This document shows positions 17,533 through 50,664 of a stretch of 64,000 nt of DNA, in pieces; the stretch's first letter is position 1, and every line of letters begins with the position of its first letter. A program made the translations under genes and the position numbers. Source of the stretch: Malacoraja senta (Eukaryota); contig CM075994.1 in NCBI GenBank assembly GCA_038087875.1, positions 10,356,001 to 10,420,000 of the forward strand. The letters run 5' to 3'. The notes under the pieces were generated by a model. The model was not told the DNA's origin. It saw nothing but the letters and a program-made list of their open reading frames with translations, and ran no database searches.

Positions 17533-18988
17533 CACTAGTTCTACGCTTTCCCACTTTCTCATCCACTTCCTGCACACACGGGGCAATTTGGAGTTGAGAG
17601 ATTCACCGTGGTAGCAGGAGCTGCAGTCCATACTGATTCATTCACGGTGGTTCTATGTTATCCCGCCTTCACATCCACTCCCTACACACTGGATATTTCA
17701 GAGGCCCTATCGTCTTTTTGGGACGTGGGAGGAAACCCAGGTGGTCACAGGGAGAAAAAAAATTTAAATGTTCGGCACGGACTTGAAGGGCCGAGATGGC
17801 CTGTTTCCGTGCTGTTATGGTTATATGGTTATATGGTTGCTAAACTCTTTAACTCTCCCTCCCATTTCCACATTGACATTTCTGTCCTGGGCCTCCTCCA
17901 TTGTCAGTGTGAGGCCAAGCGCAAATTGGAGGAACAGCAGCTCATATTTCATTTGATTACAACCCAGCGGTATGAATATTGACTTCTCTAAATTCAAGAA
18001 GCCCTTCCTTTCACTCACTCTACATCCCTCCACTTCACAATTCTCCGACCAGTTTGACTGTCTCCGATTACATTGTATCTCTGTTAGCTTTGTTGTTACG
18101 TTCTCCCAGCTAACAATGATCTATGCTACATTTTTCTTGAACTCCATCCCCTTGGTCTCGTTTTCACACCTTGCACTTCCTTATCTCGTAATCTCTCTGA
18201 ACCTGACTTCGGTCTCGACCCGAAACGCCACCCATTCCTTCTCTCCAGAGATGCTGCCTGTCCCGCTGAGTTACTCCAGCATTTTGTGTCTATCTTTGAA
18301 ACAAAACGTATCCATGTTCTGCAAAGATGCTGACCCAGCCTCTGTTAATTACTTCAGCACATTCTGTCTTTTTTGTAAACTTGCATCTGCAATTCATTCT
18401 GTTAAATAAAACTGACATAGATTTATTTTTCCTCATTTATCAGACACATCTGTAGAAGCAGAGCTTGTGTGTAATTATGGGCTGCGGGGAAATTGTCGTT
18501 TTATTCCAGTAGCAAACGCAGCTGCCGGGAAGGTTCACTTTCACACAGGCAGCTGGAGATGGGAGATGCCTGAACACAACCGACAACCACACCCCTCCCT
18601 CTGTCTCACCGCCTCTCAAGAAAACAGGAGCACGTCACCTGGCCCCTCATGTCCGCCCTCGTTCAGTATGATCAAGGCGACTCCACCACAACTCTACCTC
18701 CTCTTTAACCACCTCTAATTACCAGTCGCATCAATCTCCTCTTCCTACAATCTCCCCCCACCCACCACTATCTACCACCATCTATCACAACGACAAGCAA
18801 GGGGGGAAAGGAGGTGTGGGGGGGGGGGAGGGGTTGCGTGAGGCTGTGAAACCCCGGGCAAGGTTTAAGTTGTCCTCCCGCCTGTGCCTGAGGCCAAGCG
18901 GCTTCTCCCCCGGTCCCGGGGCCGCGCTGCGCGATTCTCCCCCCGACCCCCCGGGACTGACTCTCTGATTCTCTGCTTCTCCCCCCAG

Positions 18989-19521
18989 TCTCCGTCACCC
19001 TGGACGTGGAAACAGCGCATCCGGAGCTCGAGGTGTCTGAGGATCGGAAGAGGGTGAGATGGACCCGGACCCGGAGGCGTCTCCCTGACACCGGGAAGAG
19101 ATTTACAGTCAATACGCGTGTGCTGGGATCGGAGGGATTCACGTCGGGGAGACATTACTGGGAGGTGGAGGTGGCGGGGAGTCGGGCCTGGAGGCTGGGA
19201 GTCGCCGCAGAGTCTGTGGACAGGAAGAGACTGGTTACACCGAGCCCGGAGACTGGAGTCTGGAGCATCAGGCGGGATGGTGACGTGTTTAATGCATCCA
19301 CATCCCCTCTATCCTGTCTCCCCGCCCGTCCCATCCCCGGGAGGGTGGGAGTTTATCTCAGTTATGAGTCCGGGACAGTTTCATTTTACGACGCGGACAC
19401 CAAGTCCCATCTCCACACCTTCACTGGGAATAAATTCGCGGAGAAACTTTATCCTTTGATCGGTATTGCGGATGAAAACCATTGGCTGAGAATCTGCTCC
19501 GGTTCCGCTCCGGGTGTGTAA
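18989..19521 (+). CDS. TRIM-B exon 6: PRY-SPRY (B30.2) domain
   Basis: CCCCAG|TCTCCGTC acceptor. SVTLDVETAHPELEVSEDRKRV...GRHYWEVEV...GVYLSYESGTVSFYD...KLYP. TAA ends at 19521. Confidence 0.95.
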
Positions 19522-19850
19522 ATGGGTCGGGTCCCGGGACCGGCGTCAGGAGCGGGGCTCAGGGGCTGTGGGGCAGAAACCCGGTGGACAACAGGTCGGC
19601 GCTGAACGGCTCCCATTTAATCCCCAAATTCCGCGTCGTGAAACAAACCCCAGTGAGCGCGGAAATAAAACCAGGGGGAATGTAAATGTGGGAAGAGTGA
19701 AATAAACAGCAACTGAAATCAGAGCTGTCTGTCGATCCGTTCAGTTTAACGCGTTAACCGCGTCCGGCAACGGAACAGAAATTACTTTTGTGAAAATATA
19801 AAGATTGAAACAATCTCCCTTCCCGCGGGTTCAGCAGCAGCCGCCGGCGG
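19522..19850 (+). other. TRIM-B 3'UTR/flank with AATAAA signals (~19664, ~19701), near-identical in C (36145-36475) and D (49800-50125, minus)
   Basis: Direct comparison of the three copies by eye. Confidence 0.75.
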
Positions 19851-20680
19851 CGGGCCTGAGCTCCGGGCTCCCCCGGGTCCTAATGTCCGCCGACCCACTA
19901 AATTCATAACGTGTTTGCAGCATTTGCGCTCCACACAACAGATTCGTTTTCTTAGGAACGGATCTTTGGAAGAATGGGTTCAAACCGAATTCCCGGTTCC
20001 AGGTGGGACCCCGTTGTGCTCTGTCTCTGTCTGTCTCTCTGTAGGATACGTAGATCATTCCTTGTTTCAGTCGCTGCCAGACCCCTCTCTCACCTCTCTC
20101 TCGGGTACATCATGTCTCTATCGGTGCTGCTTCCTGCTCTCGGTCACCGATTTAACGCTTCATCTCGCTCACTGCCAGTTTCCAACCAGCTCCCGCTTTT
20201 CTCTGCTCGAGCCGCGACTCTTCCCTTCGCTTTCTCGCCGTCTCGAGAAAATCCGAGTGACCAATGTCCATTCCAAGCCCGCGGACATCATCGGCTACTT
20301 CGTCTATCCACGACCCCTGTTTGCGCATCGGAAATGGATTATTCCCTCAAAGATCGAGTGCCTACAGCAACAACCCACTTACATTTACACAATGTCCTCG
20401 CATCGCTTTTTGGAGACCCCAAAGTGCTTTACTGGTGGAATTCTCTTTGAAGTGCAGCCAGGAATGGCAATTGAAATGCAGGAGTCAATTTACAGACAGA
20501 AACATTCACAAACAGAGCTTAAAAGCAAGCTATACTGTCCAAAGCGATTTGGGTTTATTTCAATTGGAGTATTAGAAGCACCAACCACATAATTCAAATA
20601 AACACAATCTTTCTATTCGGTTCTTATGAATTTTACTGGTCGTGCGAATTATCCAACTTCAGCAACGGGGTATTAAATGT

Positions 20681-21940
20681 TGCTGAAACATCCTGCACCC
20701 ACACACAACTGACTGACTTCATCCGCTTCACCACCAACTTCCATCCGGCACTCAAATACACCTGGACCATTTCCGACACTTCCCTACCATTCCTTGACCT
20801 CACTATCTCCATCGCAGGTGATAGACTCCTTACCGACATCCACTACAAACCTACCGACTCCCATGGCTATCTGGACTACACTTCTTCCCACCCTGCTTCC
20901 TGTAAGGACTCCATCCCCCACTCTCAATTCCTCCGTCTACGCCGCATCTGCTCCCAGGATGAGGCGTTCCACACCAGGGCATCTGAAATGTCCTCATTCT
21001 TCAGGGAAGGGGGGGTTCCCCTCCTCCACCATAGATGAGGCTCGCACCAGGGTCTCTGCCATACCCCGCAACACTGCTCTCTCTCCCCATCCCCCCACTC
21101 ACAACAAAGGCAGAGTCCCCCTAGTCCTCACCTTTCACCCCACCAGCCGTCACATACAACAAGTGTTCCTCCGTCAGTTTCGCCACCTCCAACGTGTCCC
21201 CACCACTCGCCACATCTTCCCATCTCCCTATGTCTGCCTTCCGCAAAGACCGCTCCCTCCGTAACTCCCTTGTCAATTCTTCCCTTCCCTCCCATACCAC
21301 CCCCTCCCCTGGTACTTTCCCTTGCAACCGCAAGAGATGCAACACTTGTCCCTTCACCTCCCCCCTCCACTCCATTCAAGGACACAAGCAGTCGTTCCAG
21401 GTGCGACAGAGGTTCACCTGCATCTCCTCCAACCTCATCTATTGCATTCGCTGCTCTAGATGCCAGCTGATCTACATCGGTGAGACCAAGCGGAGGCTTG
21501 GCGATCGTTTCGCCGAACACCTCCGGTCGGTCCGCAATAACCAACCTGAACTCCCGGTGGCTCAGCACTTCAACTCCCCCTCCCATTCTGTATCTGACCT
21601 CTCTGTCCTGGGTCTCCTCCATGGCCACAGCGAGCAACACCGTAAATTGGAGGAAATGCACCTCATATTCAGCTTGGGCAGTCTACATCCTGGTGGCCTG
21701 AACATTGAATTCTCCCAATTCTGCTAGCCCTTGCTGTCCCCTCCCCTTCATCAGCCATCTGGTTGTCTCCTCCCCTCCCCCAGCCCTCGGGCTCCTCCTC
21801 CGCCTTTTTCCTTTTTTCCTTTCTTCTCCCCACCCCCTATCAGTCTGAAGAAGGGTTTCGGCCCAAAACGTTACCTATTTCCTTCGCTCCATAGATGCTG
21901 CTGCACCCGCTGAGTTTCTCCAGCATTTTTGTGTACCACC
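20681..21940 (+). mobile_element. Penelope-like element, 5'-truncated (RT C-terminus, GIY-YIG endonuclease, terminal repeat), 10-bp TSD
   Basis: RT tail (...SLPFLDLTIS...YKPTDSHGYLDYTSSHP...). ORF 21194-21727 contains CNRKRCNTC and NLIYCIRC...IYIGETKRRLGDRFAEH. TATTAAATGT occurs at 20671-20680 and 21941-21950. Confidence 0.93.
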
Positions 21941-23264
21941 TATTAAATGTATCTGTTGTATTAATCTACAAACCTACAATATTGTAAGTGGGTTTGATTT
22001 CAATGAACCAATCCCTTTTACATTATTTCCTCTGATTATCTGCCTGTTTCTTCCCTTCTTTCACCCAATCCATCAGGTGAAATTTTAATCGCCGCCCTCA
22101 GCCCAAGAGAGAGAAATTATCATGAGTTGTTAATTGTCATATGTACCGAGGTGGAGTAATTAAATTCTTACTTGTCCTTAATCTGAGTTTGCATCTATAT
22201 CACTCCTCACAACTTTCCCTCCTTAAACTGCGGGCCACAGTTCTCTTCCTGACTACAATGTTAGTAAATAATCCTCGCTCCTCATTCACGGAATGTTGTC
22301 CGTAATCTTCCAGATTTGTAATCAGCATTCCTAACTCCCCAAAAAGTGGGTTGCAAAATCTCTGACTCAGACCATTTTGCCTGAGCCCAGACCTCTGTTG
22401 TGTGGGTAGACAAAGCTGAGATACTCAAGTGGGCTTGGGATGGGTCCGCAGTTGGTCAGACAGGATCTGCGGAGAGAGGACATGAGTTCGCATTCCGAGT
22501 CTCTGGTCGTAATTTGCCCTGAGTCTGTCAGTCCTGCTGCATATAAAAACATTACTGTTAATGGTGTTGTTGGGAATATGAGGCACTGTTCCTCCAGTTT
22601 GTGTATAGCCTCACTCTGGCAACGGAGAGGGCCCAGGACAGAAAGAACAACGTGGGAATGGGAAGAGGAGTTAAAATGGTTGGCATCCGGCAGCCCTTGG
22701 CGGACCGAGTGCGAGTGTTCAGCCAAATGGTCGGCGACTTTCACACGAAGGTGCACCAGGCCTCACCAGGAATACAGGATGCAGTAGATGAGGTGACCGT
22801 CAACCTCTGTCTCATTTGGGAGGACGGCTATGATCCCTGGACGGAGGTGAGGGGGAAGGTACTATGAATGCAGTCTGTTCAGTTGTTCAGTTTAGTTTAT
22901 TGTCACATGTACCGAGCTACAGTGAAAAGCTCTTGTTGCGTTGTATCCAGTTCACAGAAAATCAATCCATTTCCAATGTATAGAAGGCAGGAACGTGGTA
23001 TTGTTTGTGGATGATCAGCCACGATCACATTGAATGGCAGTGCTGTCTCCAAGGGCCGAATGGCCTAATCCTGCATCCATTTTCTATATATCTATGTACC
23101 CATGCCACCGACACACACATCCAAATCATTTACAGTTTTTAACAAATGGTCAACAGTTCAGCCAGCACCGAGCCCTGCGACAAACCATCTGCCCTCTGTC
23201 TCCATTCTCAGCAGCAACCCTCATCGCCCTCGGAATCCGACCTTCAGGCGAATTTTGTATACAT

Positions 23265-24080
23265 AGATACATAGAAAAATAGGTGCAGGAGTAGGCCATT
23301 TGGCCCTTCGAGCCTGCACCGCCATTCAATATGATCATGGCTGATCATCCAACTCAGTATCCCGTACCTGCCTTCTCTCCATACCCCCTGATCCCTTTAG
23401 CCACAAGGGCCGCATCTAACTCCCTCTTAAATATAGCCAATGAACTGGCCTCAACTACCCTCTGTGGCAGAGAGTTCCAGAGATTCACCACTCACTGTGT
23501 GAAAAAGTTTATCCTCATCTCGGTCTTCAAGGATTTCCCCCTTATCCTTAAGCTATGACCCCTTGTCCTGGACTTCCCCAACATCGGGAACAATCTTCCT
23601 GCATCTAGCCTGTCCAACCCCATAAGAATTTTGTACGTTTCTATAAGATCCCCTCTCAATCTCCTAAATTCTAGCGAGTATAAGCCAAGTCTATCCAGTC
23701 TTTCTTCATATGAAAGTCCTGACATCCCAGGAATCAGTCTGGTAAACCTTCTCTGCACTCCCTCTATGGCTATAATGTCCTTCCTCAGATTTGGAGACCA
23801 AAACTGTACGCAATACTCCAGGTGTGGTCTCACCAAGACCCTGTACAACTGCAGTAGAACCTCCCTGCTCCTATACTCAAATCCTCTTGCTATGAAGGCC
23901 AACATACCATTCGCTTTCTTCACTGCCTGCTGCACCTGCATGCCTACTTTGAATGACTGGTGTACCATGACACCCAGGTCTCGCTGCATCTCCCCATTTC
24001 CTAATCGGCCACCATTTAGATAATAGTCTGCCTTCCCGTTTTTGCCACCAAAGTGGATAACCTCACATTTATCCACATTA
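23265..24080 (-). mobile_element. CR1 3' fragment
   Basis: ORF 23492-24151 (NVDKCEVIHFG...RPHLEYCVQFWSP). Nearly identical to 56920-57730. Confidence 0.92.
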
Positions 24081-24959
24081 TCCCATTGGCTTGTTGAAAG
24101 CGTGAAAACACCCACCTCCAGATTCAGGGACTGTTTCTTCCCAGCTGTCATCAGGCAACGGAATCATCCTACCACAATCAGAGATCATTGCTGGACTACT
24201 ATCTACCCCATTGGTAGAACTGCATCACACAACAGTCTGTCTGTCTTTTCGTCTGTTTTGTTATTTTAAGTGTATGGGTTAATCTTCTCTGGTGTGTTTT
24301 ATGTGGGGGTGGGGGTGGGGGTCGGGGGAATTTTTTTTTCAATCTCTTACCTTGCCGGAGATGCGATTGTTTTCCGGGTCATATCTCCGGTCGCTCTGCG
24401 GCCTAACATCATGGAGCTGGCGGCCTTGATTATGATTATGATTATGACTATGATTATGATTATGATGCACTGTAATGGCTCGATTGTAATCATGCATTTT
24501 CTTTCCGCTGACTGGAGTGCACGCAACTAAAGCTTTTCACTGTACCAGATTTTAAAACCACGCTCTAAAGTCCATACAGTTTGGGGTTTGTTTCATTTAA
24601 ACACTGAAACCAAGGCAAGAAATTCAAATAAACAAAACTTTTCTATTAGGATCTTTTGCATTTTATAGGTCGTGCGAATTATCCAAATTCAACAAAGGGG
24701 GATTAAATGTATCTATTGCATTAATCTATTAATGTATCAATTCGTCATGTTTAGGGGGTCTTTGCCCTCAAAGAGGATCCCCTCATAGCTTCCACAAATG
24801 CTTCTTGATCAATTTAATTCTACCAGAAGTTCACATCTCGTTCCTGCATTGAGGGTTTCTCCACTATTCCACCTCATGCATGTGCCGTATCTGCAGACTC
24901 TTGTGTCCCAGTGAATTCTGGACATCAACAATGATGAACCAAGCATTATAAATTATTGT

Positions 24960-25365
24960 ATAAGTAAGTAAGTAAGTTTATTGGCCAAGTATTCACATAC
25001 AAGGAATTTGCTTTGGTGCTCCGCCCACAAGTAACAACATGACATACAGTGACAGTTACGAATGACTCAGATAATACTAAACATTAATAATAATAAAACA
25101 TCAATGATAAAACACCATTAATCAAGCATGTGAACCAACAAAATACTAGATCAAAGGGAGGCTACAGATTTTTGGCTGTCGGGTAGAGCAACTATTCGTG
25201 GATAAAAACTGTTTTTATGTCTGGCTGTGGCAGCTTTGACAGTCCGGAGTCGCCTTCCAGAGGGAAGTGATTCAAAGAGTTTGTGGCCAGGGTGAGAGGG
25301 GTCAGAGATGATCTTGCGCGCTCGCTTTCTGGCCCTTGCAGTGTACAGTTCATCAATGGAGGGAA
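24960..25365 (-). mobile_element. LINE 3' end (Rex/Babar- or L2-like) with (TTAC)n tail
   Basis: Minus strand encodes a ...LPSGRRLRTVKAATARHKNSF... type C-terminus. Same family as 50676-50975. Confidence 0.75.
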
Positions 25366-31719: not shown

Positions 31720-32127
31720 ATGGCTTCGAAAGACCCGGTCGAGAGTTTAACCGAGGAGGCAGTTTGTCCCATCTGCCTGGAATTCTTCACCGATCCGGTT
31801 ATACTGGAGTGTGGGCACAACTTCTGCCGCTCCTGTATCACACAGAGCTGGGACAGGCAGGCCAGAAACTCCTGCCCGGCATGTAGAAAGTATGTGGACC
31901 GCACCCTCAGGGTGAATCGGGCCTTGGTGAGACTGGCTGAGAAAGCTCGAGCACTGAGCCTGAATCTCAAAGAGAAGAAAAGTAAACTTCACTGCGAGAA
32001 ACATCAGGAAGAACTGAAGCTGTTTTGTGAAACGGACAAGAAACTGATCTGTGTGATTTGTGCAACTGGGCGGGAACACAAGTCTCACAGCTTCATGCCG
32101 GTAGATGAAGCAATTGAATTCTACAAG
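31720..32127 (+). CDS. TRIM-C exon 1: RING and B-box2 (408 nt, intact)
   Basis: [39 protein letters not shown]...CPAC...[32 protein letters not shown]. Donor AAG|GTAAAA. Confidence 0.95.
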
Positions 32128-32217
32128 GTAAAACCAAATGAACTTCGATCGCATCATTGTGTAATCTGTTCTTAATTGTCTGACATTTTTATTCTCTGAT
32201 CTGAAACCCAACCCCAG

Positions 32218-32313
32218 GAACAGGCGAAATCTTCTTTCGAATCTCTCACAGAAAATAAATCAGAGATCGAGAAAATGGAGCAGAAACAGAAAGAGAGCAT
32301 TTCTGGAGTTCTG
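32218..32313 (+). CDS. TRIM-C exon 2 (96 nt)
   Basis: CAG|GAACAG...GTTCTG|GTGAG; homologous to B exon 2. Confidence 0.9.
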
Positions 32314-33190
32314 GTGAGGCTTTGTACTATCGATTTTATTATTTTGTGTAGATTTGATGTGATGCGTGTAATAATGGGCACCTGTATACAGCTCAGTAGT
32401 CGAGGACCCGAGATCTTGGGAGCGGTTGGGCAATCAAGGACTTTACTCCCTGGAGCGCAGCAGTCTGAAGAATGATCTATTGCAGGTGTATAATATCACG
32501 AAACGAACTGTTAAGGTGAATACCTTTACCCTGAGTTGGGCGTCGAACATGTTAGGGCATAGGTTTAAGGCGAGAGGGATCAGATTTAATACGAACATTA
32601 AGGGCAACTCTGATAGTGGGTATATGGAACGCGCTGCCTGGGGAGGTAGTTGATTCAGGTACCATAACGATATTTAAAAGATATTTGAACAAATTCGTGG
32701 AGAGAACATTTTAGAACTATCTGGGCCAAATGCGGACAGGTGGAAATAGTGCAGATGGGGCGTCTTGGTCGGTATCTAACACCCCTTGCTGTATGACTCT
32801 ATGAAGTCTATCATTCTAAGTGGTGATGCTGTCTGCTAGTTCTGGTGACCTGGTTCGTCCAGTGAGTGTTAATGGACGCATGAAATGGAATAGGTTGCAG
32901 GGAATTGTACTGGGGAAATGGGAATGATGTGATTGTACATAACTTTCACCAAATATTTCAGAATTATCAAGACGAGCCCTTGAATTGGCAAGTTAATGAA
33001 AGCAACGGATTGAATACATGTAAATAGAATTAGTGTAGATACATACAGAGCCCAGCATGGACATGTTGGGCCGAATGGCATATTTCTGCACTCCAGAACA
33101 AGAAATTAATTAGCTAAATGTCACCTTCCATGTCATGAGGAAACACAGCAGAGTGACACAATATATTGATTCTCATCTTTCACCTGACAG

Positions 33191-33422
33191 GAAGAGTCAC
33201 ACAACCTTCAGTCACAGACCACATCCCAGTTTGCTGAACTGCACCAGATTCTCAGAGAGAAAGAGCAGCGGTTACTCGGAGATATCCGGGAAGAAGAGGC
33301 GAATATTGTAAAAACAATGGAGACAAATCTTCGAGATTCAAGAGAATTTAAATTCCATTCAGGAGGAACTCTCAAAGTTACAGGAACAGATAGACTACAA
33401 GGACGGCGTGATATTTCTGAAG
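33191..33422 (+). CDS. TRIM-C exon 3 (232 nt, frameshift at ~33332)
   Basis: Homologous to B and D exon 3 with canonical splice sites; 2 nt missing. Confidence 0.88.
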
Positions 33423-35100: not shown

Positions 35101-35611
35101 AATGTTATTGGTTGTAAAGACGCACAAATCTACCCTACTCTAAAGAAAGCAAGTAAACAGTGGCAGATTGCCTCTCCCGTCCAGTCCACTCTCGTTCAGT
35201 ATGATCACGTCAACTTCACCCCGCATCTCTACCTCCTCATTAACCACCTCTAATTACCTCTCCTCATCTGCCTCTCCCTCGCCATCTACTGGCAAGATAT
35301 TTAAATACCCGCCTTATTTCGCCATCCCCACCCGCAATATCTCGTTCATCCTCACTTTCCGCATTCGTTTTCCACGTCTGCACGCACCACCGACTCCCGT
35401 TCCCGATAACCCGCGGAATTCCCCCTCTCCTGCCCGGTTGAGGAAAGATGTCTGTTGACCATCCGATGTTGTTGGGGTGAAGGTGTCAGTTGTCCTCCCG
35501 CCTGTGCCTGAGGCCAAGCGGCTTCTCCCCCGGTCCCGGGACCGCGCTGCCCGAGTACCCCCCCCCCCCCCGACCCCCGGGGACTCTCTGATTCTCTGCT
35601 TCTCCCCCCAG

Positions 35612-36144
35612 TCTCCGTCACCCTGGATGTGGAAACAGCGCATCCAGAGCTCGAGGTGTCTGAGGATCGGAAGAGGGTGAGACGAACCGAGACCTGGAGG
35701 AATCCCCCTGACACCGGGAAGAGGTTTACATACTGGGAGTGTGTGCTGGGATCGGAGGGATTCACATCGGGGAGAAATTACTGGGAGGTGGAGGTGGCGG
35801 GGAGTCAGTGGTGGAGTCTGGGAGTCGCCGCAGAGTCTGTGGAGAGGAAAGGAGAGGACGACCTGACCCCGGAGACTGGAGTCTGGAGCATCGGGCGGCA
35901 GGATGACGTCTTTCATGCATTCACCTTCCCTCAATCCCCTCTCCCCGCCCATCCCATCCCCGGGAGGGTGGGAATTTATCTCAGTTACGAGTCCGGGACA
36001 GTTTCATTTTACGACGCGGACACCAAGTCCCATCTCCACACCTTCACTGGGAATAAATTCACGGACAAACTTTTTCCTTACTTCGAGACATGGGATGAAA
36101 ACCAGTGGCTGAGAATCTGCTCCGGTTCCGCTCCGGGTGTGTAA
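35612..36144 (+). CDS. TRIM-C exon 6: PRY-SPRY (B30.2) domain
   Basis: CCCCAG|TCTCCGTC; ORF 35629-36144 with YWEVEV and SFYD motifs; open to TAA. Confidence 0.95.
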
Positions 36145-36650
36145 CAGGGTCGGGTCCCGGGACCGGTGTCAGGAGCGGGGCTCAGGGGCTGTGGGGCAGA
36201 AACCCGGTGGACAACAGGTCGGCGCTGAAAGAACGGCTCCCATTTAATCCCCAAATTCCGCGTCGTGAAACCCCAGTGAGCGCGGAAATAAAACCAGGGG
36301 GAATGTAAATGTGGGAAGAGTGAAATAAACAGCAACTGAAATCAGAGCTGTCTGTCGATCCGTTCATTTTAACGCGTTAACCGCGTCCGGCAACGGAACA
36401 GAAATTACTTTTGTGAAAATATAAAGATTGAAACAATCGGCCTTCCCGCGGGTTCAGCAGCAGCCGCGGGCGGCGGGTCCTGAGCTCCGGGCTCCCCCGG
36501 GTCCTAAAGTCCGATAACTATTCTAATTAATATCGTGTTTGCAGCATTTGCTCTCCACACATCAGATTCGTTTTCTTCGGAACGGATCTTTGGAAGAATG
36601 GGTTCAAACTGAATTCCCGGTTCCGGGTGGGAACCCGTTGTGCTCAGGCT

Positions 36651-36970
36651 CTGGAAATGCTAAAGTTGCCTTCTCTTTGGAAATGCTAAAGTTGCCTTGG
36701 CTTTGGAAATGCTCAAGTTGCCTCGGGTTTGGAAAAAAGTTGCCTCGGGTTTGGAAATGCTAACGTTGCCTTTGGTCTGGAAATGCTAAAGTTGCCTGTG
36801 GTCTGGAAATGCTAAAGTTTCCTATTGTCTGGAAATGCTAAAGTTGCCTTTCGTCTGGAAATGCGAAAGTTGCCTTTGGTTTGGAAATACTAAAGTTGCC
36901 TTTGGTTCGGAAATGCTAAAGTTGCCTTGCCTAATTGAAATGTTGCTTTGCATAATTGAAAATTTGCCTT
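36651..36970. repeat. Minisatellite, ~26-bp unit (TGGAAATGCTAAAGTTGCCTTnGnT), about 12 copies
   Basis: Direct tandem repeats visible; degenerate toward the 3' side. Confidence 0.9.
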
Positions 36971-36973
36971 GCC

Positions 36974-38046
36974 GCTATATAATTAAAAGTCTAATCTTGA
37001 CCACTTCCTTTTTGATCTGTATATTGATTTTAGAAAAAAACGCTACCACGTACGGCTGTGAATTTTGGCCATCTTACTCAGAGTCCCCTCCGCTCATCAG
37101 GTGCCGAGGATTTTTCCCATCGATGAATAATAAGTTATTAGTGTTTTTAAAATGTTTAGATTCTCTCCTGTCAATCACGTCATGAAGGCCACGCCCCTTC
37201 TGGTGGGAGGGGGAGGGGCTATAGAACCCGGAAGTGTGGGCGTGGCTCAGTCTCTGCAAGATGGGAGAGGGAGAGGTCATACTCCCTGTCTTTAGTGGCC
37301 TTGCACCCTGCTTGAAATGGTATGAAACTGCAGTTGAATTTGGTGTCCTTGCAACCTGCTTGAAATGGTATGAAACCACTTGAATTTGGTGGCCTTGCAC
37401 CCTGCTTGAAATGGTAGGAAAATGCACTTGAATTTGGTGGCCTTGCACCCTGCTTGAAATGGTAGGAAACTGCACTTGAATTTGGTGGCCTTGCACCCTG
37501 CTTGAAATGGTATGAAACTGCACTTGAATTTGGTGGCCTTGCACCCTGCTTGAAGTGGTAGGAAACTGCACTTGAATTTGGTGGCCTTGCAACCTGCTTG
37601 AAGTGGCATGAAACTGGATTTGAATTTAGTGGCCTTGCACCTTGCTTGAAGAGGTATGAAACTGCACTTGAATTTGGTCGCCTTGCACCCTGCTTGAAAT
37701 GGTTGGAAACTACACTTGAATTTGGTGGCGTTGCACCCTGCTTGAAATGGAATTTCAAGGAATAGCCGTGAGTCAACTGCCAGCCCACCAGCCATGAGTG
37801 AGTGAGCTGCCTGCACAACAGGCTTGAGTGACTGAGCTGCCAGCCCAATAATCCATTCATCCCACAATGTCCATACTAGCCCCCTGGAAACCCGTCCCTT
37901 CAGCCCACAACACCCATACTTGCGCTCCAGAAAGCCTCCCCCACTGGCCACCAATATTGGAATTGGGGAGAGGTGGAATATTGCGTTTGGGGACCAGATG
38001 GAACTTGAAATTTGAAGCTGGAACCAACGGGTCCCACTTAGTCTAG
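36974..38046 (+). mobile_element. Non-autonomous Helitron with internal 48-bp minisatellite
   Basis: 5' (G)CTATATAATTAAAAGTC, 3' imperfect hairpin GGAACC-AAC-GGGTCC then CACTTAGTCTAG|T. Ends are homologous to 38102-39531. Confidence 0.8.
37295..37750. repeat. 48-bp minisatellite, ~9.5 copies, inside a Helitron
   Basis: Unit GTGGCCTTGCACCCTGCTTGAAATGGTATGAAACTGCACTTGAATTTG; explains the 16-aa periodic ORFs. Confidence 0.92.
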
Positions 38047-41655: not shown

Positions 41656-42366
41656 TGAAAAAGTTACTTTTATAACTACTAAACCAGGTTCGCTTCTCAA
41701 TAAACAGACACCACACAAACTGTTTGGTAGACCAGTTCAAAACTTTACTTAACATCGGCCGATGGAAGGGAGCGAGAATTCCAGCTAAGTGACCAATGTA
41801 GACACTCGACTGTCCTCGGTCCCCTTCTCTGAACAACAGAATTACATCGCATTATATAGTGTTTCTTTGTCACATTAGCACATTCCACAGACATTAGTCA
41901 TGGTCAGAGGTACAGGAAAAGGCATCACATCAAAGGCCTTTTGTTTACATGGTACAAGATATACTGAAAACATTGGCCATTTGTCTTAGGTCATTTTATC
42001 TTAAAAGAGATCACCCTAGCTCTTTCGCTACTTCCTCTCTGTCACTTGGTCCCTCATAAACATAGGCCATTTGGTTTATGGCATCTTATCTTTCCACTTC
42101 CCTGGTTCCTCTCTCATCACCTCCTCCCCCATAAACATTGGCCATTTGTCTTATGGCATCTTACTTCAAAGATGTGACTAGCTGTTTCTTTCTCTGTCAC
42201 TTCCTCACTTGGGAGACAATGTTATGGTATTTATTATCTCAATACCCCAAAACCTGAGGCAACTTAACTTGCCTTTCTGTATTATTCTACTGGAGAAAAG
42301 CCTGATTTGAGACTAAATATAAGCTGTAAGCTTTTCTTATATTTTTAACATAATTCAGCTTTATCA
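41656..42366 (-). repeat. ERV 3' LTR (711 bp)
   Basis: Direct repeat of 46083-46793, preceded on the minus strand by the purine tract AAAAGGATGGAA (42367-42378). Minus-strand CCAAT-type repeats, TATATAA (~41852-41858) and AGTAAA (41744-41749). Confidence 0.95.
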
Positions 42367-43856
42367 TTCCATCCTTTTATCAAAATCTTGATAATAACTA
42401 CAGTCCTTGCCGAGTACATACAAAAGACCATAAGCATCTCATCAGGCAAATTATCTCACTGTCTGTAGTCAGGGTATCTTTGCTGCATTTGTCATGTTTG
42501 ACTCCAATCTTGTTTAAAAGGATGTGTGTACCATCCTTTAAATGTGGGTTAGTCCGCAAGTTTGCCATTCTGAAGAAAGTCCAGTCCATGTGGGCCACCC
42601 CAGAATAAAAGAGGGTCAATAGCTCCACAAACCGTTCACAGTCAATCAAATGTATCCAACGACGATGATCTTCAATCTTCACAGCAGTTTATGTTGTTGA
42701 TAGCACTTGGTTTTTCCTTTCAACACAATCTCAATTTCTTCTTGTCCCAGCACATGGTCATTTTGTAGCCTTTATGGACTCGTCCCTGTGCTCACAGCTC
42801 CTCTAACCTGGGAATGCAGATCTGGCAAGACCTGGGTTAATTGCTGTCCATACATAATTAGTTAATTGCCCAGGGCCTGTAGTTGGCTTCCCCCCACTCT
42901 CCAGGGGGTGGGCACAGCAGCCTTTCCTGTATCAATAAAAAAGTTGTAAATTCTGTTTCTCTAGCTGCAGTTGAATGACCCCTATCTACTCTGAAGAAGG
43001 GCTTCGGCCCAAAATGATGCCTATTTCCTTCGCTCCTTTGATGCTGCTTCATCCCCTGAGTTTCTCCAGCACTTTTGTCTACCTTTGATTTTCCAGCATC
43101 TGCAGTTCCTTCTTAAACACTTCTCTGTGAACTTATTCTTTAATCCGATTATATCTGAAGAGGCTCTCCCCACCTAAATATTAAATTCTCCAAATATGTT
43201 CTCTTCCCCAATTTACTTATCTTCTCACCTTTTATCCCTCATTAAAGGACAACCTCTGTTATCACATCAAAACAATCTTTCCCAAAAGAACTCACTCAGA
43301 ATCGGTAATCAATAATACATTTTCTTTTTCTCTGTAATTTTGACATTTCCAATCTCATTTAACACTTTAATTGGGATGAGTCTCTTTTTGAACTCGGCTC
43401 AAAAGATTTATAACAACCAACACATTTTATCATTTGAGTATAGCTCCACCCCCCATTCATGGCAGTGTCTTAAAGGAACACACCATAACCTGCCTGTTCA
43501 TTTGCATTTTAAAGGACAAACTGTTCTTAAAGGGACTCACACCTTTGCTCATTGCTTCAAATTTCACACATTCCACATAGAAAAAACATTGTTTTACAAG
43601 CAGTACATACACACAAAAAAATTGTTTTACCAGCAGTATATAATATTTCATCTTCAAAGACGTCTCTTTGTAATTTACTTTCCCTTTTTCTGACAAGACT
43701 TCTGTTTACCAGAATCCTGGTTACCTAACCCTAATTGGACTTTGATCCAGATCATGATTAGTCAGACTCCCCGTGACTTTTCAGTCTCCCTATCCTATCC
43801 TCATTTCTCCACCGAATTTGTCTTCATCCCCAATTTTTCTATAACATAGTTGCTTG

Positions 43857-44471
43857 TCAGAAAAAGGATTCCCCCGGGGTAATTTTGTTTTGCAATGCCC
43901 CATAGGCTCTTTCCACCATCCCAGATGCCTGTGGGTGATGTACACAGTGAAATTGCTGTCGGATATAAAAATGTGTACATATTTCCTTATTAATAGTGGC
44001 AATAAAATGGGGACCATTGTCCAAGCTTATGACAGTAGGTAGGCCAAACCTGGGAATAACTTCCCTTAACACCAATGTTACTGTAGTCTTAGCAGTATCA
44101 TTAGTGGTTGGTAGAGCTTCAATCCACCTGCTAAATAAATCTAAAATAACTAAGCAATATTTATAACACTGGGCCCTTGGCATTTCAATAAAATCAATCT
44201 GTATGCATTCAAACGGTCGTGATGGCATTGGTGTCACCCCTGAGGGTATCCTAATTGGTTTGCCTGGATTATTTCGTTGGCAAATTTTACATTCAGAGGC
44301 CTGCTTCAGTGCCTCTTGCCGGATTTTTAGGTGCCACCACGTTTCCTTTGTCATCCTTATCATTCCCTCCTTACCAGCATGGGTAAGTGAGTGAATATAT
44401 GTTAGTAAAACAGGTAAAAATGCATCAGATACACCAACTTGTCCAAGCGGGGTGAGCCGAATCAATGGCAC
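43857..44471 (-). pseudogene. Retroviral integrase (HHCC zinc finger and DDE core), truncated
   Basis: IHSLTHAG...CKICQRNN...QIDFIEMP...DLFSRWIEA...SLDNGPHF...HPQASGMVER. A separate C-terminal remnant (AVKIEDHRRWIHLIDC) lies at ~42640-42690. Confidence 0.9.
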
Positions 44472-45408
44472 AGCCCTCTTGTTTCCATAGTTGTTTTGGG
44501 TTATCAGAGGCGTCCCTCTGTAATGTACATACTTCCCTCATGTTTGGCAGGACCGTTCTATTTGCTAGCATCTGTTTACCTGCTGTCACTAAGCATTTGT
44601 ATGCATAGGCTGCTTGTTTGGCTACACTATCGGCAAATGCATTGCCTTTTGTTATAGGGTCCCCAGCACCAGTGTGTGCAGCACATTTAATAATGGTCAG
44701 CTGTTCTGGTATCATCAATGCCTTAAGCAAATAATGCACAGAAAGGCATTCCCGTGCTCCCAATCCTGGGGAGCTTTGTAAGGTCAGAACTTCAAGGTAT
44801 AGGGATATTACTGACGGAGCTGTCAGAGGTAAGTATGCCATCGCTACTGGTAGGACGTAGGGAGGTGGACATCTCCCAGGATTATCTAACTCCTCATCTT
44901 CACTACCAAACAGGGTCGTCGTGCCAGACATGAAGTCTCCTCCAGAGGATTTACCAGTACTGAGGTTATTTTTACTAACCATCACCTGTTGCTCACCTCC
45001 TGCCTGTCTCTTAATTATTTTCTCTTGTTCCTCCGCCCACTGGCATTCTAGTTGCAATACTTTCCATCCTTTCATAGTGCCATCCTTATTTCGTAACTCT
45101 ATCCCTTGTTTACATGCAGTATCCATCCAACTTCGATCTCTACTCTCCTCATGCTTCGTCTCTGCTTCTGCTTTCCACGTTTTAATTCCCTTCTTCCATT
45201 TCTTTCCTGCCTTCCTTTCCCATATCAACATTTCTGCTTTTTTAATTGTCTCGACATTCCATGTGCCCCCTACTGGCCAGGCTTCATCCCCCAACCGTTT
45301 GGTCAACTTGTAACTTAACATTCTAAATTTCTTATTATACTTAGGATTCAAATAACACATATGTTGGACGGGGGTTCCCCCCTCACTGTTATCCAAAGCA
45401 TTCCCCAT
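44425..45408 (-). CDS. ERV Gag N-terminus (MG start, PPPY late domain) fused in frame to the RNase H C-terminal segment, 327 aa
   Basis: MGNALDNS... (ATG at 45408)...GRCPPPYVLP...LLKALMIPEQLTIIKCAAHTGAGDPITKGNAFADSVAKQAA. Confidence 0.75.
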   Translation of the reverse strand: MGNALDNSEGGTPVQHMCYLNPKYNKKFRMLSYKLTKRLGDEAWPVGGTWNVETIKKAEMLIWERKAGKKWKKGIKTWKAEAETKHEESRDRSWMDTACKQGIELRNKDGTMKGWKVLQLECQWAEEQEKIIKRQAGGEQQVMVSKNNLSTGKSSGGDFMSGTTTLFGSEDEELDNPGRCPPPYVLPVAMAYLPLTAPSVISLYLEVLTLQSSPGLGARECLSVHYLLKALMIPEQLTIIKCAAHTGAGDPITKGNAFADSVAKQAAYAYKCLVTAGKQMLANRTVLPNMREVCTLQRDASDNPKQLWKQEGCAIDSAHPAWTSWCI

Positions 45409-46064
45409 AGCTAGATAGAGAAAAAGAGAGAGAGAGAAAAAAAAAATAAAAGAAAAAGAAAAAGAAAAAGAAAGCAGACCGCTTGATTCCGAAACGTGCA
45501 AAATATATCAACCAGGCCGACTCGCGACTCGAGACCCCAGTTTCTCAATTTGGCTGACTGTTTAACTTTGTAATATACAACGCCACTTATTTCTCAATCC
45601 GACAACTCCCCGGATGTTTCAATAAGCCAGACGCACACCTCACCTCCCGTATCTCAACCCGACAAAACACGGATGTCTCAACGAGGCCGATAAGCCCTTA
45701 GTAGAGAGAAAAGAAAAAAACAAAGAGAGATAGACAGAGAGAGAGAAAGAGAAACCACTCACGTCCTTCTTAACAAGATACACAAGCCCTTCTTAAAAAT
45801 ACAAGCACAAGTCTGTCTTAAAAATACATACACAATCCCCACTAAAAAAACCCTATAAAGCCCAACTGGTCTTACCTTAGTCTGTTGCTAAGAACCTCGG
45901 CAGGGAACCTGGATCAACCTCTGATGAAGGATCACAGACGTTCCCGGGAGTTTCTAGGGAGTCGGTCTTACAAGGGGGCCGATAGAGCTCAGTTATCTCC
46001 CTTCCAATCCCGGCAACCTCTGCAACCTCTTGCACAGTCAGCCGTTGATGTGGTCCCAGCGAGG

Positions 46065-46081
46065 CCTGCATAACTACGCCA
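46065..46081 (-). promoter_or_regulatory. ERV primer-binding site, tRNA-Ser-like
   Basis: Minus strand TGGCGTAGTTATGCAGG starts 1 nt after the 5' LTR. It resembles the complement of the tRNA-Ser 3' end (TGGCGTAGTCGGCAGG), imperfectly. Confidence 0.75.
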
Positions 46082-46082
46082 A

Positions 46083-46793
46083 TGAAAAAGTTACTTTTAT
46101 AACTACTAAACCAGGTTCGCTTCTCAATAAACAGACACCACACAAACTGTTTGGTAGACCAGTTCAAAACTTTACTTAACATCGGCCGATGGAAGGGAGC
46201 GAGAATTCCAGCTAAGTGACCAATGTAGACACTCGACTGTCCTCGGTCCCCTTCTCTGAACAACAGAATTACATCGCATTATATAGTGTTTCTTTGTCAC
46301 ATTAGCACATTCCACAGACATTAGTCATGGTCAGAGGTACAGGAAAAGGCATCACATCAAAGGCCTTTTGTTTACATGGTACAAGATATACTGAAAACAT
46401 TGGCCATTTGTCTTAGGTCATTTTATCTTAAAAGAGATCACCCTAGCTCTTTCGCTACTTCCTCTCTGTCACTTGGTCCCTCATAAACATAGGCCATTTG
46501 GTTTATGGCATCTTATCTTTCCACTTCCCTGGTTCCTCTCTCATCACCTCCTCCCCCATAAACATTGGCCATTTGTCTTATGGCATCTTACTTCAAAGAT
46601 GTGACTAGCTGTTTCTTTCTCTGTCACTTCCTCACTTGGGAGACAATGTTATGGTATTTATTATCTCAATACCCCAAAACCTGAGGCAACTTAACTTGCC
46701 TTTCTGTATTATTCTACTGGAGAAAAGCCTGATTTGAGACTAAATATAAGCTGTAAGCTTTTCTTATATTTTTAACATAATTCAGCTTTATCA
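46083..46793 (-). repeat. ERV 5' LTR (711 bp)
   Basis: No differences from 41656-42366 found by eye; followed on the minus strand by the PBS. Confidence 0.95.
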
Positions 46794-47726
46794 TCCGTCT
46801 ATGACTATCTATCTTTCCCTCTCAAACCCATTCTCCTGTCTTCTCCCCATTACCTCTGACAATCAAAAATCTATCAATCTCCTCCTGAAAAATGTCCACT
46901 GACTTGGCCTGCACTGCTGTCTGCGGCAATGAATTCCACAGTTCACCACCCTTTGACAAGAAATTCCTGCTCATCTCCTTCCTAAAGGAATGTTTTTTTT
47001 ATTCTGAGGCTGTGGCCACTGGTCCTAGACTCTCCCACTAGTGGAAACATCCACTCCACATCCACTCCATCCAGGCTTTTACCAGGGTAGGACAGAGTGC
47101 AACAGCGTCACACCATGTCACAAAGCTCATGTCCTGTCCTGCATCACCCAAGGCAGCAGAGACGTTATAGGAGAGGGCAAGCACCGTCACAAAGTAGCTC
47201 ACGATGGTTTTGGTAACATTCAGGAATGTCTATGCATGTCACATCATGTATATTACTGAAGAAGGGTCTTGACCCGAAATATAATCTATACCTTTTCTCC
47301 AGAGATGCTGCCTGGCCCACGGAGTTACTCCAGCACTCTGTGACATGTCACCCAACCATGTTCTCCACAGATGCTGCCTGACCCACTGAGTTACTCCATT
47401 CTGTGACATGTCACCTATCCATGTTCTCCACAGATACTGCCTGACCCACTGAGTTACTCCAGCACTCTGTGTCTATTTTCCCTTCACCCATCTGCCCAAG
47501 CCCACCCTCCCCCCTCCTTTCCTATGTTCCTTTCCACCCATAAACCTCTCTCTGCCTTTACATTTCACTCCTCTTTGAAATCTGCTCTACTTATCTACAT
47601 GCATTTTTCTTCTTAACGTTTTAGTCATAGAATGATGCAGTGTGGAAACAGGCCCTTCAACCCAACTTGCCCACACCGACCAACATGTCCCATCCACACT
47701 AGTCCCACTCACACACGTTTGGCCCA

Positions 47727-47730
47727 TCTA

Positions 47731-47788
<58 letters not shown>

Positions 47789-47792
47789 CTAT
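47727..47792. repeat. (ATCT)n microsatellite
   Basis: Direct inspection. Confidence 0.95.
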
Positions 47793-48780
47793 CTTAAGCA
47801 CGTTCGGTGTCCAGACCCAACGGGTCTGCAATTGGTCTAGTAATATATTAAAACTCTGTGGCTGCCGGCCGCCTGCTTGACTTGTGCCAGCCAGCCCCTT
47901 TGATACGCCAACACCGCACGCAGAAACGGCGAGATTTTTTTTCCATTTCGGTAGAGATTTCTTTTTTCTTTACGAATAGCCGCTCCTGATTAAATTTCGT
48001 CGTGTTTATGTACACTTTTTTAAATAAAATCATTCTCCCCCCCTACCCCCGAAATACACAGCTCTCAGCAATAGAATGTTAGTGAAGCTTCCGTCGTGTG
48101 ATGTCACAATGCCCAATGCTCACACATGTCCAATCGGAATTGATCCATTTACATATGCCTTTGAAGCAGCCCAAGCCAAAGCCCTTCCCCCTTTTTTTTC
48201 ACTAATGATTTTCACCCCGGGGTCTGAAAAACGTTCGGGATCTCACACCCCGGGGTCTTAAGCACGTTCGGTGTCCAGACCCAACGGGTCTGCACTTGGT
48301 CTAGTAATATATTAAAACTCTGTGCCAGCCAGCCCCTTTGATACCGCGCTACACCAACACCGCACGCAGAAACGCCGATATTTTTTTTCAATTTCGGTAG
48401 AGATTTCATTTTTCTTTACGAATAGCCACTTCTGATTAAATTTCGTCGTATTTATGTACACATTTTAAAATAAAATCCTTCACCCCCACCCCCCCCCCCC
48501 CCCCCCCACTCACTCATTTTGTCTCCTCCTGCTGGTCAGCTGCTGTCGACCGCCTCTGCTCCGAAAATGACGCAATCTTTTTTTCGCTAGCGATTTTCAC
48601 CCCGGGCTATGAATCACATTCGGACTCTAAAACCCCGGGTTCTGAAGCACGTTCAGTGTCCAGGGATCTGAAGCACGTTCTGAATTTTCACCCCGGGGTC
48701 TGAAACATGTTCTGTTTTTTTTTTCGCTAATCGATTTTCACGTTCGGTGTCCAGACCCAACGGGTCTGCACTTGGTCTAG
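47793..48780 (+). mobile_element. Head-to-tail array of short non-autonomous Helitron units (three 3' ends)
   Basis: CAGACCC-AAC-GGGTCTG hairpin plus TTGGTCTAG|T ending at 47840, 48304 and 48780; units of ~465-475 bp. Confidence 0.8.
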
Positions 48781-49137
48781 TATCCATCTAAACCTGTCCT
48801 ATCCATCTACTTATCCAAATGCCTCTTAAACATTAGGATAGTCCCAGCCTTAACTACCTCCTCTGGCAGCTCGTTCCATACACCCACCACCCTTTGTGCG
48901 AAAAAGCTACCTCTCAGATTCCTGTTAATTTCTGAAATATTGGTCATAAATTTGGTGCAAAAATGCAACAAAATAAGGCTCAGAATGCATTAGAGAGCAT
49001 CTAAAACCCCTGAGCTTCGAGGGACTTCACGCTTCGCGCTCGTGATGTACACAGCGCGCACATTATATCACATTAAAATGTTTGTAATCCTTTCATGCCA
49101 CCCCCCCCCCCTTTTTGAAAAACTTCGTACGGGCCTG

Positions 49138-49640
49138 GGAAGGATGTGCAGGCTCTGGAGAGGGTCCAGCGGAGGTTTACAAGAATTATCCCAGGAATTA
49201 GTTATTTAACATATGACGTGCATTTGACGGCACTGGGCCTGTATTCGCTGTAGTTTAGAAGAATGAAGGGGAACCTCATTGCAACACACAGAATAGTGAA
49301 AGGCTTGGATAGAGTGGATGTGGGGAGGATGTTTCCACTAGTGGGAGAGTCCGGGACAAGAGGTCACAGCCTCAGAATTAAATGACATTCTTTTAAGGAG
49401 AGGAGGAGGGATTTCTTTAGTCAGAGGGCGGAGAACCTGTGGAATTCTTTGCCACAAAAGGCTGTGTCAGTTGATATATTTAAGGCAGAGACAGATAGAT
49501 TCGTGATATGGGTGTCAGAGGTTATGGGGAGAAGGCAGGAGAATGGGGTTAGGAGGGAGTGATAGATCAGTTATGATTGAATGGCGGAGTTCACTTGATA
49601 GTCCGATTAGCCTAATTCTTCTACTCCTATTACGAATGAA
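49138..49640 (+). mobile_element. CR1 3' fragment (5' part at 40785-40861)
   Basis: RKDVQALERVQRRFTRIIPG...TRGHSLRI plus 3'UTR; contiguous with 40785-40861 once the nested elements are removed. Confidence 0.85.
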
Positions 49641-50125
49641 CTTAATGCGGTGAACGAAAGCAGGAAACAGCAGCAATGTAGACTTGATATAACAGAGAGA
49701 GATGAGGGAGGGGTCTGGCGGCGACTGAATCAAGGGATGATCTATGTAACCACGTTCAACTATGGACTTTAGGACCAGGGGGAGCCCGGGGCTCAGGACC
49801 CGCCGCCCGCGGCTGCTGCTGAACCCGCGGGAAGGGCGATTGTTTCAATCTTTATATTTTCACAAGTAATTTCTGTTCCGTTGCCGGACGCGGTTAACGC
49901 GTTAAAATAAACGGATCGACAGACAGCTCTGATTTAAGTTGCTGTTTATTTCACTCTTCCCACATTTACATTCCCCCTGGTTTTATTTCCGCGCTCACTC
50001 GGGTTTCACGACGCGGAATTTGGGGATCAAATGGGAGCCGTTCAGCGCCAACCTGTTGTCCACCGGGTTTCTGCCCCACAGCCCCTGAGCCCCGCTCCTG
50101 ACGCCGGTCCCGGGACCCGACCCTT

Positions 50126-50664
50126 TTACACACCCAGAGCGGAACCGGAGCTGATTCTCATCCACTGGACATCGTCCGAAGGCTCAAAGAATGGATAAAG
50201 TTTCTCCGTGAATTTATTCCCAGTGAAAGTGTAGAGATGGGACTTGGTGCCCGCGTCGTAAAAAGAAACTGTCCCGGACTCGTAACTGAGATAAACTCCC
50301 ACCTTCATGGGGACGGGACGGGCGGGAAGACGGGATGGAGGGGAGGTGAATGCATGAAACGCGCCATCCCACCGCCTGATGCTCCAGACTCCAGTCTCCG
50401 GGGTCAGTGTGACCGTACTATTCCTCTCCACAGACTCTGCGGCGACTCCCAGACTCCAGCCCCGACTCTCCACCACCTCCACCTCCCAGTAATGTCTCCC
50501 CGACGTGAATCCCTCGGATCCCAGCACACACGTACTGTATGTAAACCTCTTCCCGGTGTTAGGGAGACTCCTCCGGAACAAGATCCGGGCACATCTAACC
50601 CTCTTCCGATCCCGAGACACCTCGAGGAGTGGACCGGCCGTTTCCACATCCATGGTGACGGAAA
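50126..50664 (-). CDS. TRIM-D exon 6: PRY-SPRY (B30.2) domain
   Basis: CACCAG|TTTCCGTC acceptor. SVTMDVETAGPLLEVSRDRKRV...YWEVEV...SFYD...KLYPFF, with a 2-aa insertion in the first variable loop. Confidence 0.93.

Follow-up and report, generated by a model that had tools for sequence, protein, structure and literature searches.

Diversifying selection on the predicted B30.2 binding face, and likely gene conversion of the last exon, in a very large TRIM gene family of the skate Malacoraja senta

Results

A stretch of 64,000 nucleotides (nt) from the genome of the skate Malacoraja senta (assembly GCA_038087875.1, contig CM075994.1, positions 10,356,001 to 10,420,000; hereafter the window, numbered from its first base) carries three genes, B, C and D, whose exon 6 encodes a PRY-SPRY (B30.2) domain and is, judged from the domain composition, the last exon of class IV TRIM genes (RING, one B-box, coiled coil, PRY-SPRY). 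Probably, these genes belong to a very large TRIM family in which the predicted binding face is under diversifying selection, and in which gene conversion likely keeps the rest of an exon block of ~1 kb uniform and shuffles the variable patches. The three exons lie where the first-pass annotation of this DNA had placed them (B, 18989-19521, plus strand; C, 35612-36144, plus strand; D, 50126-50664, minus strand), and all patch strings it quoted for B, C and D (e.g. VNTR / YWEC / YSTC) are present in the translations.

Exon 6 of B and C differs at 66 of 531 bases and 39 of 176 residues, so that the earlier count of about 39 differences stands, with a length of 176 rather than 171 residues. As had been proposed, most differences fall in short patches, six of which hold 26 of the 39 amino-acid differences and differ at 44 of 93 bases, and the differences are clustered along the sequence (permutation, p=1e-4). 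The scaffold, described as differing at a handful of positions, is indeed far below the patches but less clean than that (22/435 bases, 13 residues outside the six patches), partly because a seventh patch (codons 99-109) had been overlooked; five of these 13 differences fall at residues 101-109. The flanks are near-identical between B and C, with 7 differences in 326 nt and two indels in the 3' flank (first 330 nt past the stop codon) and 8 in 121 nt and two indels in the intron end, but this does not extend to D, where the intron end shows 14% divergence and is interrupted by ~300 nt of inserted sequence. Coding patches are more diverged than the adjacent non-coding DNA, as claimed (44/93 vs 7/326 in the 3' flank, p=4e-26); for the rest of exon 6 vs the 3' flank, p=0.054. 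The presumed 3' untranslated region (UTR) of ~330 nt is a conserved flank of which only ~190 nt are likely UTR, because AATAAA occurs at +143 and +180 and the distal end is common to a dispersed repeat. Whole-exon comparison of B and C by proportions of nonsynonymous and synonymous differences (pN 0.135, pS 0.096) and the one-ratio model M0 (omega, the nonsynonymous to synonymous rate ratio dN/dS, 1.03) were discarded as uninformative, as scaffold and patches cancel.

Selection was studied in a larger sample. From 131 loci, 101 passed an intactness filter, 22 were flagged as broken (in at least four, whose frames are open, because of a motif test alone), 6 were partial, 1 was without acceptor and 1 gave no match; removal of 13 re-fetches and 12 near-duplicates from the intact loci left 76 copies. 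The models were run with our own codon code rather than PAML, on scaled branch lengths from the M0 tree. Twice the log-likelihood difference (2dL) was 946 for M1a/M2a (omega 6.7 on 17% of sites) and, after refitting, 1002 for M7/M8, the comparison called for by the first-pass annotation, and 900 for M8a/M8. Thirty-two codons were positively selected with omega about 6; in exon 6 of gene B the selected codons are 12, 24-30, 40-42, 64-68, 80-84, 92-109 and 156-162, and the strings of selected residues are distinct in all 76 copies. Null data without positive selection gave M1a/M2a 2dL of 25 and 40 with mosaicism alone, vs 909 for the real data, and a grid test that left the synonymous rate free yielded 226 vs 20-52 in four null simulations. 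Sites were also defined independently, as the 32 most variable columns among 135 ray proteins: 28 of them coincide with the 32 codons selected here (p=9e-24), and the tree-free dN/dS at the ray-defined sites in the present genome is 3.2 (confidence interval 2.4-4.4) vs 0.73 elsewhere. Diversifying selection, as originally suggested, is thereby upheld.

A structure model of gene C exon 6 (predicted local distance difference test score, pLDDT, 87.8) has the known B30.2 fold, with template modelling (TM) scores of 0.92 to BTN3A1 and 0.91 to TRIM21. Selected residues occupy loops and alternate positions on four strands (66/68, 92/94/96, 99/101/103 and 156/158), suggesting that they line one face of a sheet. 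The phosphoantigen pocket of BTN3A1 is formed by H351, H378, K393, R412, R418 and R469 (PMC4303140). Counted along the alignment, the equivalent positions are codons 41, 68, 83, 101, 107 and 158, all six of which are selected, with 6-8 different residues at each. From the alternation along strands and the match to the pocket, the variable residues are expected at the surface rather than in the buried core, consistent with strong diversifying selection on the predicted ligand-binding face of B30.2.

Divergence in exon 6 is decoupled from that in the other exons. Among 41 genes (42 minus one near-duplicate; 820 pairs), grouped into subfamilies by exon 2, the median pS between subfamilies is 0.367 in exon 2, 0.276 in exon 3 and 0.141 in exon 1, and 0.045 in the exon-6 scaffold; corresponding medians in the flanks are 0.047 (UTR) and 0.036 (intron end). 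Within subfamilies, the scaffold (0.054), UTR (0.048) and intron end (0.054) give similar values. Exon 1 is thus partly homogenised across subfamilies (0.14 vs 0.28-0.37 in exons 2-3). Exon-2 distance tracks exon 3 (rho 0.84, p=0.001) but neither the scaffold (-0.06, p=0.71) nor the UTR (0.0, p=0.47), and only weakly the selected codons (rho 0.19, p=0.003). In an approximately unbiased (AU) test on 32 genes, the exon 2+3 tree was rejected, both on exon 6 data (p=2e-9) and on scaffold and flanks combined (p=9e-4). The shared block extends a median of 100 nt upstream and 360 nt downstream of exon 6, with ragged ends (2346 pairs). A mobile cassette with fixed ends was rejected on account of these ragged boundaries, and since the block includes the intron end and DNA past the poly(A) signals, it is not a retrocopy.

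The scaffold also carries near-fixed residues by lineage, for instance at position 134, where all 64 skate units (100%) have D and 99% of 135 ray units have N. Median coiled-coil distances are 0.39 between skates and 0.42 between skate and ray, vs 0.065 and 0.138, respectively, for the scaffold; however, both protein sets were chosen by similarity and skates form nearly one clade in the coiled-coil tree, so that subfamilies older than the skate-ray split do not follow from these values.

Inside exon 6 the patches are mosaic. Linkage (r2) falls from 0.078 at 1-6 nt to about 0.025 past 15 nt, a test for mosaicism similar to the pairwise homoplasy index (PHI) gave p=0.0005, and distances correlate between patches at only -0.02 to 0.25; the patches assort almost freely, likely through short-tract gene conversion. 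Twelve of 76 copies carry the same 15-nt loop haplotype, and their other loops are mostly different. Differences within eight near-identical pairs are clustered (19, where a site-weighted null predicts 10.0; p=2e-4). Uncoupling from exons 2-3 and mosaic patches support the exon-level exchange first suggested from the flanks of B and C.

The exon block is a CpG island (GC 0.59, observed/expected CpG 0.89, vs 0.47 and 0.56 in the window), and AATAAA occurs twice within 400 nt past exon 6 in 64 of 76 copies. The first-pass annotation conjectured that the CpG-rich flanks could promote exon-level conversion, but homogenisation also ranks with the length of the homologous block (exon 6 > 1 > 3 > 2) and, for these only four exons, with GC at fourfold sites (0.68, 0.645, 0.51 and 0.31). 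High GC may be a consequence of conversion; a test for GC-biased conversion in 62 copies gave p=0.098. Among runs from other organisms, compared over exon 6 and its flanks, three have contigs with loose ends where the acceptor lies; two of these ends resemble the end of exon 5, which indicates spliced family members there. These contigs are guessed to be RNA, one being probably DNA, and their depth cannot rank gene parts; the drop of summed depth past the second AATAAA is a weak hint only for the likely UTR end.

Further along the 3' flank, a hypervariable non-coding spot of ~20 nt (window 19890-19909 and 36514-36533) has a counterpart in 57 copies. In 33 copies with one flank type its diversity is 0.34-0.42, vs mostly 0.04-0.15 beside it; the two remaining flank types give 0.34 and 0.22. 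On visual inspection the spot varies less in dispersed copies of the repeat that shares this sequence, and in one type several copies form small hairpins. The repeat is a dispersed non-autonomous element with terminal inverted repeats (L214-L221), which we take to be hAT-like; it occurs on other chromosomes and shares internal sequence with the TRIM 3' flank, and one copy (L220, G000:C11) has an 8-base flanking duplication. In some paralogues, GC-rich DNA upstream of exon 1 that resembles a promoter also contains up to ~70 nt of the distal 3' flank (L222 and L223 on G000:C282 and C1858; L224 on C3060).

Leucoraja and Rhinoraja provide the closest relatives, with up to 85% identity, under the names 'zinc-binding protein A33-like', 'nuclear factor 7-like' and 'TRIM39-like'. 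A 23-base exon 6 motif has 337 matches in the assembly at up to one mismatch, haplotype duplicates included (control, 0), a 25-base UTR motif has 98 exact matches, and each of three protein searches gave at least 150, in line with a large repertoire. Since small contigs hold many of the matches, and a partner within 2.5% exists for 12 of 88 distinct intact places, the haploid number may be well below 337; we put the family at roughly 170-340 copies. The first-pass annotation called the repertoire lineage-specific. The scaffold signatures are skate-specific, but the family, with the same variable positions, is present in rays and sawfish, and judged by these relatives it is batoid-wide. Membership in finTRIM was not found, the genes having a single B-box stretch and their closest proteins coming from skates and rays rather than teleosts, nor was membership in NLR-B30.2, the upstream exons encoding RING, B-box and coiled coil and no NACHT or LRR. 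Two exceptions may be recorded: a frameshifted exon-6 block with flanks stands alone on the largest contig, far from the cluster (L166, G000:C1:219.73 Mb), and a diverged pair with 66% identity to B (L183 and L185, G000:C406), its flanks diverged as well (as measured in L183), seems to have departed from the homogenised pool.

Butyrophilins may end in the same exon. Annotated skate butyrophilins have a terminal B30.2 domain 80-84% identical to that of gene C, the join being present in P0066, P0080 and P0040. On contig C2171, exons for IgV, IgC and transmembrane segments are followed in tblastn order by the block, including its intron end and UTR (837 nt, 84%), whose flanks lie 0.036 and 0.076 from TRIM copies and whose scaffold lies at 0.11, vs 0.038 among TRIMs. 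On contig C4250 (C4250:123863), IgV and transmembrane exons, without a detected IgC, precede a closer block copy (scaffold distance 0.10). No RING or coiled-coil exon lies between butyrophilin exons and block on either contig. From this exon order, two butyrophilin genes seem to share their terminal exon and its flanks with the TRIM genes. A third butyrophilin gene is followed by frameshifted block copies; a search as far as 311999 found no B30.2 exon for the butyrophilin at C4250:271371, and the one on C5771 keeps its own B30.2 (41% identity). In Rhinoraja, a butyrophilin ectodomain groups with shark and sawfish orthologues (100/100), and its B30.2, which the TRIM-type exon may have replaced, is 0.157 from skate TRIMs vs 0.467 from the orthologues and falls inside a skate clade of 27 rows (92/90); grouping with the orthologues was not rejected by the AU test (p=0.34).

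In genes B and C the RING, B-box, coiled-coil and PRY-SPRY segments follow one another in this order on a single strand (Pfam on exons, tblastn exon order), and for gene D the window holds exons 3, 5 and 6 only, exons 1-2 giving no match within the 64 kb. The parts are as follows.

7767..8177, plus: gene B exon 1, RING and B-box, frame shifted by a 1-nt deletion near 7862 in this assembly
8266..8360, plus: gene B exon 2, coiled coil
11370..11603, plus: gene B exon 3, coiled coil, Pfam TRIM_CC
18865..18988, plus: gene B conserved GC-rich intron end (GC 0.69, CpG observed/expected 0.75)
18989..19521, plus: gene B exon 6, PRY-SPRY (B30.2), open frame
19522..19725, plus: gene B likely 3' UTR, AATAAA at 19664 and 19701
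19726..19849, plus: gene B conserved flank past the second AATAAA, last part recurring upstream of exon 1 in some paralogues
19850..20100, plus: gene B distal sequence common to the dispersed element with terminal inverted repeats, hypervariable non-coding spot at 19890-19909
31720..32127, plus: gene C exon 1, intact RING and B-box
32217..32312, plus: gene C exon 2
33188..33422, plus: gene C exon 3, 2-nt deletion near 33335 that is not in the closest copy, L079
34113..34232, plus: gene C exon 5
35480..35611, plus: gene C conserved intron end
35612..36144, plus: gene C exon 6, PRY-SPRY, open frame
36145..36512, plus: gene C conserved 3' flank, AATAAA at 36287 and 36324
49764..50125, minus: gene D conserved 3' flank
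50126..50664, minus: gene D exon 6, PRY-SPRY, open frame, patch 1 with 2 extra residues
50677..50978, minus: insertion of ~300 nt within the gene D polypyrimidine tract (splice acceptor)
50979..51109, minus: gene D displaced intron end
59455..59574, minus: gene D exon 5
60361..60594, minus: gene D exon 3

Besides these, the window contains a remnant of a fourth TRIM gene at 887-1570 (end of exon 1 and exon 2, with no further exons matched in the window) and a recently inserted long terminal repeat (LTR) retroelement at 41656-46794, bounded by two 712-nt direct repeats (41656-42367 and 46083-46794) that are 100% identical and enclose an integrase core domain on the minus strand (43857-44537). 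Many fragments of reverse transcriptase and endonuclease of long interspersed nuclear element (LINE) type, presumably CR1, lie in introns and intergenic DNA (9464-10525, 14089-15312, 53463-57546 and 60988-63829), and short-unit tandem repeats lie downstream of gene C (36650-36927 and 37291-37753) and upstream of a LINE (53280-53637).

Discussion

In the mechanism we favour, frequent short-tract conversion among paralogues would erase silent and flank differences, with the long unbroken homology of exon and flanks as substrate; selection would retain new variants at the binding face, and tracts shorter than the exon would recombine these variants. Sensors of the TRIM5/TRIM21 type dimerise by the coiled coil, bind the target by B30.2 and ubiquitinate it by RING, and by analogy an intact skate protein would do the same. 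Likely, the targets are pathogen proteins, probably viral, and the outcome would be a repertoire of sensors inside the cell like those of zebrafish.

Several points weigh against this reading. The 76 copies are skewed toward copies like B, C or D, and 20 of the 41 gene pairings were made by the nearest downstream exon. Nulls combining mosaicism with fourfold mutation hot spots raised M1a/M2a 2dL to 346 and 386 (vs 909 in the real data), for which reason this comparison is not relied on alone. Synonymous diversity (piS) at selected codons is 2.4 times that elsewhere (0.14 vs 0.06) and the non-coding spot nearby is equally variable, so that local mutation may contribute. Linkage decay with distance was absent at scaffold-only sites (p=0.66), and the amino-acid excess at selected codons in the eight near-identical pairs was not significant (11:1 vs 24:10, p=0.24). 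The receptor or E3-ligase role is one that we infer from the domains only. Finally, upstream lesions affect all three genes in this assembly: the RING exon of B has lost 1 nt, exon 3 of C has lost 2 nt, and D is without exons 1-2 in the window and has ~300 nt inserted at its acceptor. Single-base indels in several other copies make assembly error a possible cause, and 15 of 22 whole genes are without scored lesion in exons 1, 2, 3 and 6, insertions being outside the scoring.

Whether such faces bind pathogens is a separate matter. It is conceivable, if improbable, that the diversification is real and the ligands are host proteins, transposon products or germ-cell targets, which is compatible with the evolutionary mechanism proposed above. 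The best-match names 'zinc-binding protein A33-like' and 'nuclear factor 7-like' might point that way, A33 and nuclear factor 7 being amphibian oocyte proteins, but such names are similarity-based labels. Zebrafish bloodthirsty, which acts in erythropoiesis (PMC3137616), also fits a host role; nevertheless, selection this strong on one face of hundreds of paralogues is what immune families display (PMC2657112, PMC4852459).

We hold it unlikely that conversion is not ongoing and that the exon-6 block instead spread once, recently, over older 5' halves, by exon shuffling or unequal crossover in intron 5, and then diversified. Homology stopping near the exon (the medians given above), tandem exon 6 copies on C4250 without nearby RING or coiled-coil exons, and the scaffold sites without linkage decay would all agree with a single spread. 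It does not readily accommodate multi-base loop haplotypes that recur on different backgrounds, ragged block boundaries, or the clustered differences in near-identical pairs, for one run of which both versions were found in other paralogues; moreover, rays have their own uniform scaffold, so that the sweep must have been repeated in each lineage.

Less credit still is due to purifying selection, acting through splicing, RNA structure or regulation, as what keeps silent sites and flanks uniform in place of conversion. In its favour, the flank is more conserved than scaffold silent sites between B and C (0.028 vs 0.063), the flanks of the C2171 butyrophilin (0.036 and 0.076) are nearer to TRIM copies than its scaffold third positions (0.108), runs from four other organisms show few flank differences, and there is a weak folding signal (z=-2.1). 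But the diverged copy L183 is the reverse of C2171, its flanks (0.27 and 0.34) exceeding third positions (0.20) in divergence; flank similarity was lost there faster than silent similarity, which argues against strong constraint. Furthermore, Rfam gave no match near threshold that would mark the flank as structured RNA, the scaffold residues of each lineage have changed together, and constraint leaves the mosaic patches unexplained.

That the patches are tolerated mutation hot spots, not selected, is very unlikely and already largely refuted. Raised piS at patch codons, the non-coding spot with its diversity of 0.34-0.42 (33 copies) and the large M1a/M2a values of the hot-spot nulls speak for it; however, nonsynonymous diversity (piN) is 2.6 times piS at the independently defined sites and pairwise dN/dS only 0.8 and 1.1 in two hot-spot nulls, strand alternation is a pattern at the level of the protein, and the same positions vary in rays. 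Recent whole-gene duplication with selection and no exchange between genes, to which tandem arrays and the many near-identical pairs (12/88) might appeal, is scarcely credible if the gene pairings are right, as divergence in exons 1-3 and in the introns far exceeds that in exon 6 of these genes and the exon 2+3 and exon 6 trees conflict.

Selection together with conversion on B30.2 is a mechanism already described in zebrafish. The NLR-B30.2 family there likewise has hundreds of genes, with old N-terminal groups, B30.2 exchanged across groups and under positive selection, and short conversion tracts proposed to combine variants (PMC4852459). In contrast, the skate carrier is a RING/B-box/coiled-coil TRIM of a cartilaginous fish, without NACHT or LRR, its non-coding flanks are co-homogenised, and butyrophilins carry the same block. 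Like the finTRIM, btr (TRIM39-like; some of the skate relatives bear that name) and TRIM35-like families, the present one is a class IV TRIM expansion (PMC2657112, PMC3137616). In finTRIM, 16-18% of B30.2 sites are positively selected, and B30.2 is common to finTRIM and NLR via exon shuffling (PMC2657112, PMC3137616), at 55-65% similarity vs ~80% identity between skate TRIM and butyrophilin B30.2; however, finTRIMs are described as teleost-specific with two B-boxes (PMC2657112), unlike the one B-box of the skate genes, and copy number is higher in skate than in zebrafish (89 ftr). An expanded TRIM family is also reported in cartilaginous fish, namely 'TRIM69' (PMC7677710), with 13 copies on the bamboo shark MHC (major histocompatibility complex) chromosome, but it averages 18 copies. 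Mammalian TRIM5alpha, TRIM21 and BTN3A1 have the same B30.2 fold, and the skate variable positions match the BTN3A1 pocket, but the mammalian proteins are encoded by single or few genes and that pocket is a fixed basic site. Judged by title and abstract opening, and with most subscription journals outside the search, no report was found that describes such an analysis for cartilaginous-fish TRIMs or TRIM-butyrophilin sharing.

Our results thus extend the strategy of a diversified B30.2 repertoire from teleosts to cartilaginous fish, with hundreds of copies. Near-identical scaffolds with 32 variable positions, and combinations that differ in 76 of 76 copies, make loop-swap tests of B30.2 specificity easy to design. 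Butyrophilins are present in cartilaginous fish (PMC12841164), and we tentatively put forward, as a speculation that is more doubtful than not, that skates keep one germline pool of B30.2 faces, built from about seven modules via micro-conversion and exchanged between cytosolic TRIM ligases and membrane butyrophilins, so that a specificity for intracellular destruction could pass to a surface molecule alerting gamma-delta T cells. Exon sharing with butyrophilins, if ongoing and functional, would join two arms of immunity.

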